A stretch of DNA of 17,767 bases from IMG/VR virus record IMGVR_UViG_2690316149_000014, positions 1 to 17,767 of that record. One strand, given 5' to 3'. The position numbers and the translations under genes were made by a program. Shown here in pieces: positions 1,778 through 12,348 of the stretch; the stretch's first letter is position 1; each line of letters starts with the position of its first letter. The stretch comes from a virus (Duplodnaviria > Heunggongvirae > Uroviricota > Caudoviricetes). The notes beneath the pieces were generated by a model. That model was given only the letters and a program-made list of their open reading frames with translations, was not told where the DNA came from and searched no databases.

Positions 1778-1978
1778 TTACCCATTGGCGCGGCTTAAGA
1801 GCTTATTTTTGAATTCACAATGGTCACGATATAACCATCTTGCTCGCCCGTGGATAACTTTGGCTTTAGGCAGGTCCCCGGACTTAATCCGGTCATAGAT
1901 GAAGGTTTTACCGAAGCCAGTATCGGCCATGATGAATTTCAAATCAACCAGTGAATCAGGCTGTAGTTCGTGTTGCAT
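1778..1978 (-). CDS. torI: Excisionase / recombination directionality factor, AlpA-TorI family, 66 aa
   Basis: 66-aa ORF 73 bp inside the att core; size and basic winged-helix-like sequence (…FGKTFIYDRIKSGDLPKAKVIHGRARW…) match recalled TorI of KplE1. GGAG about 10 nt upstream of the ATG. Confidence 0.7.
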   Translation of the reverse strand: MQHELQPDSLVDLKFIMADTGFGKTFIYDRIKSGDLPKAKVIHGRARWLYRDHCEFKNKLLSRANG

Positions 1979-1997
1979 GAGTGCTATCTCCGAATAG

Positions 1998-2013
1998 GGA
2001 ATCGAACCTGCAA
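1998..2013 (-). other. Second argW-derived block: 16-nt match to the tRNA-Arg T-arm (TTGCAGGTTCGATTCC), contiguous in the tRNA with the 1690-1704 block
   Basis: Plus strand GGAATCGAACCTGCAA is the reverse complement of recalled argW nt 45-60. Lies 20-35 nt upstream of the torI ATG. Confidence 0.55.
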
Positions 2014-2022
2014 ATCAGGCAA

Positions 2023-2044
2023 TAAAAAAACCGCATTGATGCGG
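2023..2044 (-). terminator. Putative intrinsic terminator (minus strand): CCGCA/TGCGG stem followed by a T8 run
   Basis: Plus strand shows A8 then CCGCATTGATGCGG; on the minus strand this is hairpin plus U-run, 60 nt after the stop of the 2104..2475 gene. Confidence 0.45.
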
Positions 2045-2103
2045 CAATGGCAGGTCTGGATATCTTGAGAAATGAACAGGCCTCATCGAGTGTGAGGCTG
2101 TGG

Positions 2104-2475
2104 TTAGTCCTTGCGTAACTCGCTAATTCTTCTGTAAGTCTCTGGTGCTTTGTTTCCGTGTATCTTCATTTCAGACTTCAACAGAGCAACGAGGGAATCC
2201 CATTCGTTGAGGATGCCTTTGAATGCCGGAACGCGCTTTGCAACCTTGTCGAATGAATCTCTGATTTCTGGGATCTGCTCAACAAGTGCAACGCATCGTC
2301 GGAAATCGGCTGCGTCATGTGGAGCGCCGAAGTGATGACCATAGATATTCTTTTTCAGTCCACATGCGATTGAGGCAAGAGTTGCGCTACTGATGCCGAC
2401 ATCGCCAGTCGATTGCCATTTCAAAACCTTCATAGCCAAATCTGACATTTCTTGTCTCCAATAAAAAACCGCCAT
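2104..2475 (-). CDS. Hypothetical phage protein (123 aa from ATG 2475; 114 aa if started at ATG 2448)
   Basis: ATG 2475 overlaps the upstream ORF stop as TGATG (translational coupling); the internal ATG at 2448 has RBS GGAGACAAG. No family recognised. Confidence 0.5.
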   Translation of the reverse strand: MAVFYWRQEMSDLAMKVLKWQSTGDVGISSATLASIACGLKKNIYGHHFGAPHDAADFRRCVALVEQIPEIRDSFDKVAKRVPAFKGILNEWDSLVALLKSEMKIHGNKAPETYRRISELRKD

Positions 2476-2482
2476 CAGGCGG
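2463..2482 (-). terminator. Short terminator-like hairpin (CCGCC-ATCA-GGCGG plus T6 on minus strand) overlapping the 2475 start codon
   Basis: Seen directly; 5-bp GC stem only, so it may simply be coding sequence. Confidence 0.3.
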
Positions 2483-2642
2483 CTTGGTGTTCTTTCAGTT
2501 CTTCAATTCGAATATTGGTTACGTCTGCATGTGCTATCTGCGCCCATATCATCCAGTGGTTATAGCAGTCGTTGATGTCCTCTGCTTCGATAACCCTGTC
2601 GAATGGCTCTCCATTCCATTCACCTGTGACTCGGAAGTGCAT
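2475..2642 (-). CDS. Hypothetical small protein, 55 aa (MHFRVTGEWNGEPFDRV…)
   Basis: Below the 60-aa track cutoff. ATG 2642-2640 preceded by RBS GGAGATGA; stop overlaps the next start (TGATG). Confidence 0.4.
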   Translation of the reverse strand: MHFRVTGEWNGEPFDRVIEAEDINDCYNHWMIWAQIAHADVTNIRIEELKEHQAA

Positions 2643-2714
2643 TTATCATCTCCATAAAACAAAACCCGCCGTAGCGAGTTCAGATAAAAGAAATCCCCGC
2701 GAGTGCGAGGATTG

Positions 2715-2804
2715 TTATTGTCTTTTCTTCGTGCATTTGTCGCACTTTCGGCACCATCCAGATAGGCACATCCGTCCGCAATTAACACATATAGGCCACA
2801 TCAT
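2715..2804 (-). CDS. Cys-rich micro-protein, 29 aa (MMWPICVNCGRMCLSGWCRKCDKCTKKRQ), zinc-ribbon-like
   Basis: Below the track cutoff. RBS AGAGGA; ATG overlaps the upstream stop as ATGA; four CxxC-type pairs. Confidence 0.35.
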   Translation of the reverse strand: MMWPICVNCGRMCLSGWCRKCDKCTKKRQ

Positions 2805-3079
2805 TTTTCCTCTTTTGGTTTATGAATCTGAATGGTCATGCCGCTTTGAGTGGTGACTACAATGACAGAACCAGGCTGAAGACTGTTAAGATTGAATGCT
2901 TCGTAAAACGAATCCAAGGCCAGCGTTTTTTTATTCTTTCGGTTCCACCAACGCCATCCCTTGCTACAGGCTACACTGACAATCCACTGCCCACTCCTGT
3001 AAGCCATATAAAACCAGATGAGCAAAACCTGAAGGAATGCTATCCAGTCAATAATCGTATATTTCGCGAAGGAGTCCAT
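2801..3079 (-). CDS. Hypothetical protein, 92 aa, N-terminal hydrophobic helix
   Basis: Track ORF 2801..3082 begins at GTG; the ATG at 3079 has RBS GAGGTG and overlaps the upstream stop (TGATG). Confidence 0.5.
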   Translation of the reverse strand: MDSFAKYTIIDWIAFLQVLLIWFYMAYRSGQWIVSVACSKGWRWWNRKNKKTLALDSFYEAFNLNSLQPGSVIVVTTQSGMTIQIHKPKEEK

Positions 3080-3945
3080 CACTTCACCTCCTGCTGCGGT
3101 GCTGCTGGCATTTCACGCCAGTGCGTAACTGAGTGCGGATCCGGATATTCAGTGCCATCATCCCAGCGATTGCCATTCCACATTGCAGACCACATCTCAC
3201 CGTCTTCATACATGACCATTACCGGAATTAACTTATCCGGCATTCGCTCACTACAGCTTATCCAACCATCCGGAGTTACCGGAACTTGCGGAATGGCTGT
3301 CTGCTCTCGAACGTCATTAGGCGCTATAGGTTCTGCTGCCAACTGACTGGCATATTTGTTAATGGTAACGATAAGCTCTTGCTCAGCCTCATCCAGACAA
3401 TCACCGATACCTCGCCTGTCACCGTCAAAATCATCGAAATCGGCACGAATCTTGGCAACCTTCAGGATTGCGGACAACACTTCACTAGGAATTACCGGAT
3501 AGTTGGTTGACGTTTCCGCGATTTCCCGAAAATTATTGGTTGACGAATTCTTATTTTCCCGAAAGTTTCCGGACTGAAGCATGGCGGCGCGGCAGGCGTT
3601 CCAGCCTCTCACCTCTGCAATAGCGGCAACAGCATCAACCGCGTACATGCTAAGAGGATTAGGCATTGGTTTTTCTTCCGGTACTACTGGAACGGGGGGA
3701 GCGGCGTAGACCTCAATAATTCCATTATCAATAGGCCATTCTCCATCCTTGAGGTAGTCACTTGTGCCGTCAACTTGCTGTTCTGCAATGTGGAATGCAC
3801 CTATTGGTTTTGCTTCCAGCGATGCCAGAGCAATCCGTGCCAGTTCTTCCGCTTCTTCTGCTGGCAGTACAACGTTGCTACCCGGTCCGTATGTTTCGCG
3901 CCACTGCTTGATTGTCAGCAGTCGCTCTTTGGTTATAGTGGTCAT
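3079..3945 (-). CDS. Phage protein with C-terminal DUF551-like domain, 288 aa
   Basis: C-terminus (…DGWISCSERMPD…VTHWREMPAAP) resembles the recalled DUF551 signature of lambdoid early-region proteins; N-terminal two-thirds unassigned. Confidence 0.65.
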   Translation of the reverse strand: MTTITKERLLTIKQWRETYGPGSNVVLPAEEAEELARIALASLEAKPIGAFHIAEQQVDGTSDYLKDGEWPIDNGIIEVYAAPPVPVVPEEKPMPNPLSMYAVDAVAAIAEVRGWNACRAAMLQSGNFRENKNSSTNNFREIAETSTNYPVIPSEVLSAILKVAKIRADFDDFDGDRRGIGDCLDEAEQELIVTINKYASQLAAEPIAPNDVREQTAIPQVPVTPDGWISCSERMPDKLIPVMVMYEDGEMWSAMWNGNRWDDGTEYPDPHSVTHWREMPAAPQQEVK

Positions 3946-3955
3946 TTGTTATGCC

Positions 3956-4153
3956 TCAATACACGAAATCTGTTTTAAATTCATGGTTACATTCTGGACA
4001 GCATGTTTCGTAACCTTTTATTTCTTCACATGCCTGTTTAGCTCCAGAAAACTCCCAGAAATCTGGATCACAAAGCAGATCGAAATTGTGACCACATTTG
4101 GGACATTCGGTATCAAGTGACAGACTCCAGTAGGCAGTGATGTTTTTATCCAT
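3956..4153 (-). CDS. Small zinc-ribbon-like protein, 65 aa (two CPxCG-type pairs)
   Basis: Track ORF 3956..4186 overlaps the upstream gene; the internal ATG at 4153 has RBS AGGAG and sits 1 nt after the upstream TGA. Motifs CPKCGH…CCPECNH. Confidence 0.55.
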   Translation of the reverse strand: MDKNITAYWSLSLDTECPKCGHNFDLLCDPDFWEFSGAKQACEEIKGYETCCPECNHEFKTDFVY

Positions 4154-8460: not shown

Positions 8461-9429
8461 TTAGTAGGTTATTTTTGTTGCGAATACTTCGCCTTTTACG
8501 ATGGCTGTTATGATATTTTTAGCAACATCTTCTGATGCGCCAACCTTGATAAGGTCAGCAAGTATTTTGTTATTTACTTCTTTCCGGTGAGCTTTATCCT
8601 TTGCTCTACGCTCTTCTTCGTCCTTGATTCTTTTTTCTTCTGCTATTCTGGCTTGCTCTTTTGCTTCAGCCTCGCGACGGGTTCGTTCAGCCTCCTCCTG
8701 TGCTTTTCTGCGTTCTGCTTCAATTGCTGCCTGCTTTTCTCTTTCAGCTCGTTCTGCTGCCTCTTTTGCTTCGCGCTGTGCTCGTTGCTCGGCTTCAATG
8801 CGTTCACGCTCTGCACGTTCCGCTGCGGCCTTAGCTTCTGCTTCTCGCCTTGCTGCTGCTTCAATTTCGGCTTTTGCCTTTGCTTCGGCTTCTGCTCTGG
8901 CTTTCTCTTCAGCTTCTCTTTTTAATCGTTCTTCATGCTCTCGCTTTTCCTGCTCCGCTTTGAGTCTTGCCTCTTCTCTTTGGCGGTCAAATTCGCGATC
9001 CATCAAAATCGCTATTTCATGGTCAGACTCAATTTGCTTTGCGAGAGCTTCAGCTGCTGCCTTAGCTTCTTCTTCGGCTTTAATCCGCGCCTGTTCTTCC
9101 TCATAATCAGTAAGAGGCTGGCGCGCCTTGGCTTTCAGTTCATCAAGGCGATCACGCACTGTCTTGCGGTTGGCATCAATTAGCTTTGGAATTTCCTTAA
9201 GTTCAGCAACAAGGTCTTTGCCAATACCATCGAGATATGTTTTCGTCTGCGCAACTTTATACGCCAGAGAAGCGATCTCCTTTCTGCCCTTTGCCGTTGT
9301 GATATCAGGCACAAAGGACATAACTTCACGTTCAACCTTTTGAAGGATTTCTTCAATCTGGTCGGCAGACTGAAATACAGTCATTGCATTTGCTTTTTCA
9401 ATAACAACTAAATCTGTTACTTCACTCAT
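8461..9429 (-). CDS. Hypothetical phage protein, 322 aa, with long Glu/Ala/Lys/Arg-rich low-complexity coiled-coil centre
   Basis: Strong RBS GGAGGA; central ~150 aa are EAKR repeats, with matching GC-rich DNA repeats at 8600-9000. Confidence 0.65.
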   Translation of the reverse strand: MSEVTDLVVIEKANAMTVFQSADQIEEILQKVEREVMSFVPDITTAKGRKEIASLAYKVAQTKTYLDGIGKDLVAELKEIPKLIDANRKTVRDRLDELKAKARQPLTDYEEEQARIKAEEEAKAAAEALAKQIESDHEIAILMDREFDRQREEARLKAEQEKREHEERLKREAEEKARAEAEAKAKAEIEAAARREAEAKAAAERAERERIEAEQRAQREAKEAAERAEREKQAAIEAERRKAQEEAERTRREAEAKEQARIAEEKRIKDEEERRAKDKAHRKEVNNKILADLIKVGASEDVAKNIITAIVKGEVFATKITY

Positions 9430-10051: not shown

Positions 10052-10351
10052 TCAAATAAGTGGTTTGCTGCCTAATTTCATTTTCTGGCGACCAACACAA
10101 GTCACACCCATTTCACTGCGTGGCTTGCGGTAGTAAATACGATTCTGTTTACTCTCTACTTCTTCTGCCTTCTTGCAGCGAAGGCTTCCGAGTGATGCTG
10201 CTTTATCTGCTCTGACGCAACCAGAGAGCTTTAGCGCAATTTTTCGCGCCAGTCGCTGCTCTTGCATTGCCTGTTCACGTTGAGCCTGTCTGCGTGCTCT
10301 GCGGCGATTTCTGGCGTTATCGTCAGCCAGATATGTAATGACTACTGTCAT
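10052..10351 (-). CDS. N: N-family transcription antiterminator, 99 aa, with arginine-rich motif
   Basis: Track ORF 10052..10423 trimmed to the ATG at 10351 (RBS GGAGG). N-terminal ARM …NARNRRRARRQAQREQ…; first gene downstream of pL/nutL; matching boxA/boxB sites on both sides of the immunity region. Confidence 0.65.
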   Translation of the reverse strand: MTVVITYLADDNARNRRRARRQAQREQAMQEQRLARKIALKLSGCVRADKAASLGSLRCKKAEEVESKQNRIYYRKPRSEMGVTCVGRQKMKLGSKPLI

Positions 10352-10391
10352 GTTGACCTCCGGGAAGGTACACATCCTTGTGTGTCGATGA

Positions 10392-10511
10392 TTATTTGTT
10401 TTTGCGTTCCCACATCCAGTCATCTACTTCAGACCAGATAGTGAAACCGAAGCAGATGGCGAATGTGGTAACTAAACCACCGAGAATTGGGTTGGTCATG
10501 ATGTCTAACAT
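10392..10511 (-). CDS. Possible small hydrophobic peptide, 39 aa, in the pL leader between nutL and N
   Basis: Below the track cutoff. RBS GAGGAA 6 nt before the ATG; one predicted TM helix. Could be a chance ORF. Confidence 0.25.
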   Translation of the reverse strand: MLDIMTNPILGGLVTTFAICFGFTIWSEVDDWMWERKNK

Positions 10512-10770: not shown

Positions 10771-10855
10771 GAATACTGTAGGTATTTTATTGTGTAAATA
10801 CCCAAGGTATTTATTTTTGATGAAATAATGATAAACAAATGAATACAAAGGATAT
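10771..10855. promoter_or_regulatory. OL operator cluster / pL region: three sites of form GAATAC-N5-GTATT
   Basis: Sites at ~10771-10786, 10797-10811 and a weaker one at ~10841-10855 share half sites with the OR operators. Confidence 0.55.
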
Positions 10856-10943
10856 TTATTTTTTCCGGTGTCTGCTTGTTCAGTGCTTTTTATGCGGGAT
10901 ATGTGAAGTGGATCCCGATAGCTATTGCTGCCGGGATTATGGG

Positions 10944-11312
10944 TTAGTCAGCGAAGGTTAAGACGAGAATTACCTTAATGATGTCTGCTACAACAGACAC
11001 GGCCATAGATAAACCAAAGACGATCCAAGCCATAGAGATGTCTTCACTACCATCGTATAGGGTTCCGTAATCACTGGTGTAAGGCGTAAATGTCGCGCCT
11101 TGATACAATAGGTATAAGCTTGATCCATAGAGGATAAATGCAGATATCCCTTGTATTGCTATGATCACTAGAATCATGAAACGAGCTGATCTATGCGCCC
11201 AAGCCTGGCTTATTTTTTCTGATAGAGATTTCGCAATAAAAGCATGCGCTAAGCCGTAAATTGTTGAGATTGCCAACATCCCCAAAAAGCTTGCTATAGC
11301 GGTTCCAACCAT
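10944..11312 (-). CDS. Small polytopic membrane protein, 122 aa, ~4 TM helices, in the rex position immediately downstream of cI
   Basis: RBS AAGGGGG; begins 19 nt after the cI stop on the same strand, upstream of OL/pL. No family recognised. Confidence 0.65.
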   Translation of the reverse strand: MVGTAIASFLGMLAISTIYGLAHAFIAKSLSEKISQAWAHRSARFMILVIIAIQGISAFILYGSSLYLLYQGATFTPYTSDYGTLYDGSEDISMAWIVFGLSMAVSVVADIIKVILVLTFAD

Positions 11313-11330
11313 AAGCGCCCCCTTGCGTGA

Positions 11331-12047
11331 TCAAACCAGTCTGAGTTTTGTCTCAATTGCAACGCCTATAATCTTGCAGTTTCCATTGATTGGCACGAGA
11401 GGCCATGCAGGATTAAGTCCCTTGAGGTATTTATTTCCGCCGTCGATTATCAGCTTCTTGAATGTTGCTTCGTTAGAGTCAGAAAGTTTTGCTATGACCA
11501 AGCTGCCGTTGATCGCCTCCCTTCCGGTATCGAAAAGAACGAATGTTCCCTCTGGAATGCTTAACCCAACCGGTGCCGTCATTGAATCACCTTCCACTTT
11601 AAGCCAGAACGCATTACCTTGAATATGCGCGTCAGACTCAAGCCAAACATCTATGTCTTTAATGGTGTATGGTTCGCATGCTTCACACCACGAGCCAGCC
11701 TGGATACTGCTTAACACCGGATACCTCTTTCCTGCTCTGTATTCCCCTGCATACCTTACGTTGGCATCGCTCTTAAGGCTTTCTGCCTGTTCTGCAACCT
11801 TGGCAGCAATTGACTGGCTAAAATCAGCAATTGAGACTTGCAACAATCGTGCAAAACCAGATGCAACCTCAACGTTTAGCGCGTTTCTGCCATTAAGATA
11901 ATGCCCTACCGCTCCTTGGGTGATACCCAGTTCATCAGCGATTGAGTATTGGGTTATTCCCAATTCTTTCTTTTTTGACTCATACAAAGCCTTAAGCCGC
12001 TTAGCGTCTTCGAGCTGTTCTGTCGTCAGTGATTTTTTATTTTCCAT
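11331..12047 (-). CDS. cI: CI-type prophage repressor: N-terminal XRE-family HTH plus C-terminal LexA/S24-like autocleavage domain, 238 aa
   Basis: HTH …QYSIADELGITQGAVGHYLNG…; C-terminal S24 signature …GDSM…/…KL…; no SD before the ATG (leaderless, as for lambda pRM); divergent from cro across an operator region. Confidence 0.9.
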   Translation of the reverse strand: MENKKSLTTEQLEDAKRLKALYESKKKELGITQYSIADELGITQGAVGHYLNGRNALNVEVASGFARLLQVSIADFSQSIAAKVAEQAESLKSDANVRYAGEYRAGKRYPVLSSIQAGSWCEACEPYTIKDIDVWLESDAHIQGNAFWLKVEGDSMTAPVGLSIPEGTFVLFDTGREAINGSLVIAKLSDSNEATFKKLIIDGGNKYLKGLNPAWPLVPINGNCKIIGVAIETKLRLV

Positions 12048-12082
12048 AGCTTAATTCTAATAGCTAAGGTACTTAAACTAAA

Positions 12083-12123
12083 AATACCCTGAGTATTGAT
12101 TGCTTTGAATACCTGTAGTATTC
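12083..12123. promoter_or_regulatory. OR operators with divergent pRM/pR promoters
   Basis: Two sites, AATACCCTGAGTATT (~12083-12097) and GAATACCTGTAGTATTC (~12107-12123), with centres ~25 bp apart. Candidate pR -35 TTGATT / -10 TATTCT; candidate pRM -10 TAGAAT placed for a leaderless cI start. Confidence 0.6.
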
Positions 12124-12153: not shown

Positions 12154-12348
12154 ATGATTCGAATGACACTTGCCGATTACGCCAAAATCCATGGACAGGC
12201 TAAAGCAGCCAGTGACTTTGGTGTAATCCAGTGCGCTATCAGCAAGGCCATTCTGGCAGGCCGTAACATCATGGTTACGGTAAAGCCTGATGGCAGTGTG
12301 ATTGGAGAGGAAGTTCGTCCTTTCCCAAGCAACAAGAAAAACAAATAG
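12154..12348 (+). CDS. cro: Cro repressor, 64 aa from ATG 12154 (track ORF begins at GTG 12148)
   Basis: Recalled similarity to lambda Cro throughout; RBS GGAGAG upstream. Confidence 0.85.

Follow-up and report, generated by a model that had tools for sequence, protein, structure and literature searches.

hkaS, a conserved orphan of the HK620-type repressor operon, is predicted to encode a small inner-membrane protein

We asked what a short orphan gene lying directly behind the cI repressor gene might do for the phage that carries it, taking as our case a 17,767-nt stretch of caudoviral DNA (the window, meaning the whole stretch that was analysed) in which a single small open reading frame (ORF) fills the space between cI and the left operator. 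The interval between cI and N is a hotspot of mosaic diversity whose cargo is expressed from the repressor promoter: it holds rexAB in lambda, stk in 933W, hex in 434 and bstA in BTP1 (PMC3564112, PMC8585504), and the orphan genes past the repressor of epsilon34 were taken in its genome paper to be prophage-expressed "like rexA and rexB" (PMC2629481). The original prediction, made from the letters of the window, had placed an orphan membrane protein with four helices in this rex slot, and in treating the position as a slot for such cargo it adopted what is the field-standard view (PMC8585504, PMC3564112, PMC2629481).

The gene itself proved to have a name. It is hkaS of coliphage HK620 (GenBank AF335538, protein AAK28867), entered in 2001 with the product "unknown" and 99% identical in nucleotide sequence to the window ORF; the family profile, PHROG 6534, whose function is annotated as unknown, spans residues 1 to 122 of the 122 at E 1.1e-78, and the RefSeq entry (WP_000233129.1) reads "hypothetical protein". 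The same gene is labelled "HkaS protein" in the record of HK630 and hypothetical in those of mEpX2, HK140, HF4s and two Stx2c phages, and no paper in the literature searched mentions hkaS or its accessions. It has thus been known as an annotation since 2001 and never studied, and is not a newly discovered gene; the term orphan is apt for a protein without detectable homologues, but not if it is taken to mean unannotated. Over the 1.7 kb of the immunity segment, nucleotide identity is 98.6-99.5% to HK620, HK630, mEpX2, HK140, HF4s, several vB_EcoP phages and two Stx2c-converting phages. In the window hkaS occupies the same position between cI and OL as in HK620, whereas the flanking N region is mosaic and unlike that of HK620, and the window allele differs from the commonest allele by F10L, T93S and V94M.

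The surroundings of the gene are those of an immunity region (Table 1), with a repressor that carries Peptidase_S24 (E 5e-24) and HTH_3 (E 8e-10) domains. A search for the operator motif AATAC-N5-GTATT, allowing one mismatch, returned five sites where 0.43 would be expected, a count that none of 200 shuffles reached. Together with a pL-like promoter these sites set the ORF between cI and OL, in the orientation of cI and upstream of OL and pL as had been claimed, so that hkaS lies within the immunity block that runs from OR to OL. Between the cI TGA and the hkaS ATG is an 18-nt spacer (11313-11330), TCACGCAAGGGGGCGCTT, which means that the ATG starts at the 19th nucleotide after the stop, and the ribosome-binding motif named in the original prediction is present within it.

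Table 1. Features of the immunity region. Positions are those of the window, except in the last row, where they are those of the L093 sequence.
Feature	Position	Strand	Basis or remark
hkaS, 122-aa predicted three-TM inner-membrane protein, PHROG 6534	10944-11312	minus	ATG start; ORF list
cI repressor, HK620 immunity type, 238 aa	11331-12047	minus	Pfam; AF335538 annotation
cro, divergent from cI	12154-12348	plus	Pfam Cro E 4e-26; HK620 annotation
Shine-Dalgarno AAGGGGG of hkaS	11318-11324	minus	ends 5 nt before ATG, inside spacer
OL1	10772-10786		operator-motif search; HK620 annotation
OL2	10797-10811		operator-motif search; HK620 annotation
OL3	10842-10856		operator-motif search; HK620 annotation
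OR1	12108-12122		motif search; HK620 annotation
OR2	12083-12097		motif search; HK620 annotation
OR3 (2 mismatches)	~12059-12073		motif search; HK620 annotation
pL-like promoter, -35 TTTACA, -10 TATTCT	10798-10770	minus	promoter read; HK620 annotation
Putative pRM, -10 TAGAAT	12054-12059	minus	sequence reading; 17-nt spacer to -35
Putative pRM, weak -35 TTTAGT	12077-12082	minus	sequence reading
Stem-loop 6 nt past hkaS stop, candidate tIMM analogue	10912-10937	minus	RNA fold -14.1 kcal/mol, z -2.3
HkaS homologue (55% identity) with 215-aa cI, L093 (uncultured Buttiauxella, CBCPKK010000004.1)	1833-2910		

On the far side of cI, inspection of the sequence showed no Shine-Dalgarno upstream of the start codon. 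The -35 of the putative pRM abuts OR2 and its -10 ends 6 nt before the cI ATG, a distance of 6-7 nt also found in the Salmonella (L003) and Hafnia-type (L008) lineages; we take this arrangement to match the geometry of lambda pRM. Although pRM carries no annotation in AF335538, a leaderless cI whose transcript starts at or next to its ATG is plausible. Within the putative operon, a promoter scan of the minus strand from 11313 to 12047 found no promoter-like site and the 18-nt gap between cI and hkaS no terminator, while hkaS is the sole cI-strand ORF between cI and OL, here and in all homologous loci, in agreement with the predicted absence of a RexA-like partner. The stem-loop that follows hkaS, which has no clear U-tract in the window, may be the 3' end or the terminator of a cI-hkaS transcript; a search for Rfam RNA families returned none in the window. 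Of the claim that hkaS is co-transcribed with cI, the operon layout stands (no internal promoter, a hairpin after the gene, and the same order in eight lineage contexts, described below), and we infer the transcription itself. As the distal cistron of the cI operon, HkaS is probably made in lysogens.

Two details of the region differ from the deposited record of HK620, which puts OL3 and tIMM at the equivalents of ~10819-10835 and ~10832-10862. Our third operator match, which is kept in other lineages, lies instead at the OL3 position of Table 1, and the stem-loop listed there is the sole strong hairpin after hkaS, so both features may have to be re-annotated in that record. Elsewhere in the window, a 39-aa ORF (10392-10511, minus), MLDIMTNPILGGLVTTFAICFGFTIWSEVDDWMWERKNK, with a GAGGAA Shine-Dalgarno, one hydrophobic helix and no Pfam family, is part of the pL transcript and immediately precedes, with a slight overlap, the long N ORF (10052-10423). 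A 322-aa ORF (8461-9429, minus) without a Pfam match, named 'TolA protein' in ON470594, has a long coiled-coil-like region rich in Glu, Ala, Lys and Arg, and its repetitive composition accounts for spurious overlapping ORFs on both strands there. At the left end (1-1248, plus), adjoining the phage early-left genes, is a complete LacY-family sugar/H+ symporter gene (Pfam E 1.6e-193), annotated as sucrose permease within the phage records vB_EcoP-683R2 and -611R6; the phage carries it as metabolic cargo, unless this end of the window is host DNA from the edge of a prophage.

We then considered the protein. The four hydrophobic helices of the original prediction are there in part: AlphaFold2, run on an alignment of six sequences (mean pLDDT 91.6, pTM 0.78), models four helices at residues 2-29, 31-38, 41-74 and 89-121 and a short beta-hairpin at 78-86, but Kyte-Doolittle hydropathy has three hydrophobic segments, and model and hydropathy together show only three predicted membrane spans, at about 2-29, 41-74 and 89-121, with 31-38 modelled as a short amphipathic helix. 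Loop 1 (28-44) holds four to seven basic residues in each of the six aligned lineages, and loop 2 (71-91) two to four acidic and at most one basic. By the positive-inside rule this charge bias leads to a predicted topology of N-out and C-in, with loop 1 in the cytoplasm and loop 2 in the periplasm. The most conserved features are an invariant C-terminal ILVLTFAD tail, a Y-L/M-L-Y-Q/K-G-A-T-F/Y motif at the periplasmic end of TM2, a cytoplasmic K-I-x-Q-A-W-x-H-R/K-x-A-R-F segment, and three polar or charged residues inside the membrane, Q54, D110 and K113.

The family had not been recognised from the sequence at the outset, and profile and fold searches found only PHROG 6534, its sole family match. 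Searches of Pfam, NCBIfam and PDB sequences gave nothing significant for HkaS, the defence models of PADLOC-DB 2.0 yielded no family at E up to 1, no Pfam or PHROG model of SieA-, SieB- or Imm-type exclusion proteins matched, and fold searches with the AlphaFold model returned no informative match; among annotated PHROGs at E up to 10, none recurred across four divergent family members. Nor did Pfam, NCBIfam, PDB or fold searches turn up a characterised non-defence homologue, which the original prediction had named as contrary evidence. Matches to Cation_ATPase_C (E 0.001) and TssN lay below cut-offs and were absent in four divergent homologues, and we regard them as chance. A word-indexed search of 5.8 billion proteins retrieved 11 clusters, and an exhaustive profile search of 1.84 billion representatives retrieved one full-length 50%-identity cluster, one fragment and one protein of 5,949 aa. 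We rejected this last, a YD/RHS-repeat protein (P0014), as a relative, its match being compositional and confined to loop residues 71-96. Nine stretches of P0014 (~4028-4055) match the HkaS profile (E 2.8e-7), all by the periplasmic-loop motif ATFxPYxSxYGxxYxG; they probably reflect a Tyr/Gly/Asp compositional likeness to YD repeats, and the HkaS loop may adopt a YD-like beta-hairpin.

The obvious comparison is with lambda RexB, and one reading makes HkaS a RexB-like effector that would be inactive by itself, its sensor being encoded at some other place in the prophage or by the host. RexB has 144 residues and a reported four transmembrane helices, as against 122 residues and three predicted spans in HkaS. 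The two share the slot between cI and OL, the cI strand, presumed transcription from pRM and pRE, and the character of a small polytopic inner-membrane protein (PMC8585504), and the conserved intrahelical Q54, D110 and K113 would fit an effector of this kind. Homology to RexB was considered and rejected, with an hhalign probability of 0.3% over 13 aligned columns and the RexB Pfam family unmatched at E up to 1; given this and the three spans, the description of HkaS as RexB-like does not hold. Moreover, HkaS has no RexA-like partner between cI and OL, and across mosaic phage backbones it has no conserved neighbour except cI. We therefore think a dependence on a distant sensor very unlikely.

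How widely, and in what company, the gene occurs bears on what it might do for its own prophage. Among complete E. coli genomes 146 of 5,426 (2.7%) carry hkaS, always on the chromosome and in prophages, and one of 185,579 species-representative genomes does, that of an uncultured Buttiauxella. Eight lineage contexts, drawn from Escherichia, Salmonella, Hafnia and Buttiauxella, share the order cI, an 18-20 nt gap, hkaS, hairpin, pL and N; the contexts examined were four Salmonella-type loci, four Hafnia-type loci, L076, L093, L094 and L095. Every one has a cI-type HTH_3/S24 repressor 18-20 nt upstream of the HkaS homologue and Cro divergent on the other side of cI, and in loci long enough to judge, ~350-650 nt carrying operators and promoters separate the homologue from N. 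Although their spacers have diverged, the Salmonella, Hafnia and Buttiauxella lineages keep a Shine-Dalgarno, AAGGA or GAGGGA, at an unchanged distance from the start. A stable hairpin begins 6-20 nt past the stop in all six lineages folded (z -2.3 to -4.4), its sequences unrelated, and is trailed by a U-tract in L093 (terminator scan, 2889-2910) and L094 (read by eye from the fold output). The gene and its immunity module are found on podovirus (HK620), siphovirus (HK630) and Stx-phage backbones, a spread from which we conclude that its function would be independent of virion type.

The linkage to cI is not a linkage to one immunity specificity. In L093 the cI is only 60% identical and the operators are different, TAAATTTAAGT-like repeats, yet hkaS is present, followed by a textbook intrinsic terminator (2889-2910); conversely, fifteen loci with cI relatives of 76-78% identity have no hkaS, and both of the two that were checked, L077 and L080, share the operator motif of the window. 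For these reasons we take hkaS to be tied to its position, and the idea that operator matching locks it to cI as the sole reason for their linkage is weakened. In L080 an opposite-strand gene (3748-4134, minus) fills the slot, its 128-aa product having a signal peptide and matching no Pfam family, and in L077 there is no adjacent ORF (3715-4015), which shows turnover of cargo in the cI-N slot.

These loci bear directly on the idea that HkaS tunes the cycle of its own prophage, through lysogen stability, induction or lysis. RexA and RexB reportedly act in the transition from the lysogenic to the lytic state. In the same slot, 434 Hex prevents RecA-mediated repressor cleavage and so stabilises the lysogen, a precedent (PMC3564112), and the association of HkaS with a cI-type S24 repressor in every lineage examined points the same way. 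But cI relatives with the same operator motif manage without hkaS, which means that it is dispensable for the switch, and a protein this small, integral to the membrane and with only tiny loops outside it, would be an unlikely direct partner of CI or RecA. Hex, in addition, was purified as an MBP fusion and so handled as a soluble protein (PMC3564112), whereas HkaS is predicted to be membrane-integral, a contrast drawn by description only. A role in the prophage's own switch accordingly strikes us as improbable.

Is the gene needed at all, or is it an ORF without function, a hitchhiker caught between cI and the OL operators? The family is indeed very narrow, as the single full-length cluster attests, and its amino-acid divergence outpaces that of cI: between the window and a Hafnia-type homologue protein identity is 82% for HkaS and 96% for CI. 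The substitution ratios nevertheless tell of constraint. For that pair dN/dS is 0.15 in hkaS (dS 0.66) and 0.03 in cI, and between the Hafnia and Salmonella types it is 0.21 in hkaS and not computable in cI, where dS is saturated; the hkaS range of 0.15-0.21 is itself reported at saturated dS. The minus-strand, ATG-initiated ORF of 122 codons claimed for the window is real by this measure and by its integrity, being intact in 63 of the 63 IMG/VR loci that have a 100%-identical cI together with an hkaS match (the only other locus with such a cI, L043, stops at the cI stop codon). Across six lineages, down to 49-51% identity, the protein stays 121-122 aa long with some 45 positions invariant, the Shine-Dalgarno is conserved, and AlphaFold is confident from an alignment of six sequences. 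We conclude from these comparisons that hkaS is under purifying selection, and regard a functionless ORF as extremely unlikely.

Within the sampled E. coli phage contigs, segregating changes number 26 nonsynonymous to 20 synonymous in hkaS and 6 to 33 in cI, and the 63 copies encode 24 protein variants. This raised nonsynonymous share might be mistaken for the signature of an arms race, yet the amino-acid variants are mostly singleton conservative swaps (A/S, I/V/L/M, S/T), and for that reason we do not claim positive selection; we read the polymorphism as weaker constraint on transmembrane helices, with no evidence of an arms race. Separately, an alternative frame overlapping the 5' part of the gene (11191-11334, minus) supplies the N-terminus (MITQGGAYGW...) of three database proteins, P0005, P0008 and P0009, whose clusters have only one or two member sequences each; this indicates that they are 5'-frameshifted copies of hkaS, either rare pseudogenes or sequencing errors.

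Conservative variation, and a gene present in a few per cent of E. coli genomes within chromosomal prophages, would also suit a factor of lysogenic conversion that has nothing to do with phages: an orphan immunity protein against pore-forming bacteriocins or against contact-dependent or T6SS membrane toxins, or else an envelope-stress or fitness factor. Immunity proteins against such toxins are inner-membrane proteins of about 100-180 aa with three or four TM helices. HkaS fits in size, in its three-span topology and in its conserved periplasmic loop, and constitutive low-level expression from the repressor operon would serve an immunity protein well. Against this, the colicin and microcin immunity families of Pfam are unmatched at E up to 1-10 in five family members, the lone sub-threshold match, to Imm17 (E 0.016), arose in one member and was not reproduced in the others, no toxin gene was seen in the window, and the known cargo of the slot is directed at phages or at the switch. 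We consider such a conversion factor unlikely.

Taken together, hkaS is, as far as its sequence and context tell, a genuine accessory gene of the moron type, the last cistron of the HK620-type repressor operon. Transcription from pRM, activated by CI in the lysogen, would yield a leaderless cI-hkaS mRNA ending at the hairpin before OL3, and during the establishment of lysogeny pRE would give the same message. HkaS would then be translated from its own Shine-Dalgarno and inserted into the inner membrane with three spans, its basic amphipathic loop (28-44) predicted to face the cytoplasm, its acidic, Tyr/Gly-rich beta-hairpin loop (71-91) the periplasm, and its ILVLTFAD tail the inside of the cell.

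Most characterised small membrane proteins of lysogeny modules exclude superinfecting phages; SieB of P22 and lambda, Imm of T4, gp15 of HK97 and Sie2009 of lactococci are all small inner-membrane proteins that act alone. P22 SieA is likewise a prophage-encoded inner-membrane exclusion protein (PMC10883804). HkaS resembles these five in being a small inner-membrane protein, as predicted, encoded by a prophage or lysogeny module, although the genes for SieA and SieB lie elsewhere in the genome, outside the cI operon, and hkaS lies inside it. Because the small membrane proteins of such modules mostly exclude, and because hkaS moves with the immunity module, exclusion is the most likely role: HkaS, unaided, would counter superinfecting phages at the inner membrane, a reading to which we give a probability of about 0.42. 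It could do so by obstructing the entry of the superinfecting genome, as do P22 SieA, T4 Imm and HK97 gp15, or, in the manner of an abortive effector of the SieB or RexB type that has no partner, by making the membrane collapse once a phage has infected. We slightly favour a block to entry, since HkaS has neither a sensor-sized soluble domain nor a partner gene.

This defence reading, which the original prediction also proposed, is a plausible conjecture drawn from position and topology. Position is circumstantial here, because the slot also holds Hex, a lysogen stabiliser rather than mainly a defence protein. The genes hex, stk, bstA and epsilon34 genes 44 and 45 are, like hkaS, accessory and often orphan, and each follows the repressor gene, with which it shares a transcript or would be expected to. 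Their products, compared by description only, are of other kinds: Hex was handled as a soluble fusion, Stk is a kinase and BstA acts where phage DNA is replicated, while HkaS is predicted to be integral to the membrane. A bolder form of the exclusion reading would make HkaS the founder of a one-protein, membrane-embedded anti-phage family, a pared-down counterpart of Rex that lacks a sensor, is made from the repressor transcript and blocks entry or collapses the membrane alone; we hold this to be rather doubtful.

In its genomic setting hkaS is unexceptional, one more piece of orphan cargo in the familiar cI-N hotspot, and its protein family is a truly isolated one. If HkaS has another role, it would still be a conserved, lysogen-linked orphan, on record since 2001. 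If it does exclude phages, a very small single-gene membrane determinant would join the defences of prophages, and its 122 residues, with their confidently modelled structure, would offer a tractable model for sensor-less recognition of infection or for a block to DNA entry; carried in 146 of 5,426 complete E. coli genomes and by Stx-converting phages, it could then affect host range in phage therapy and the spread of Stx phages.
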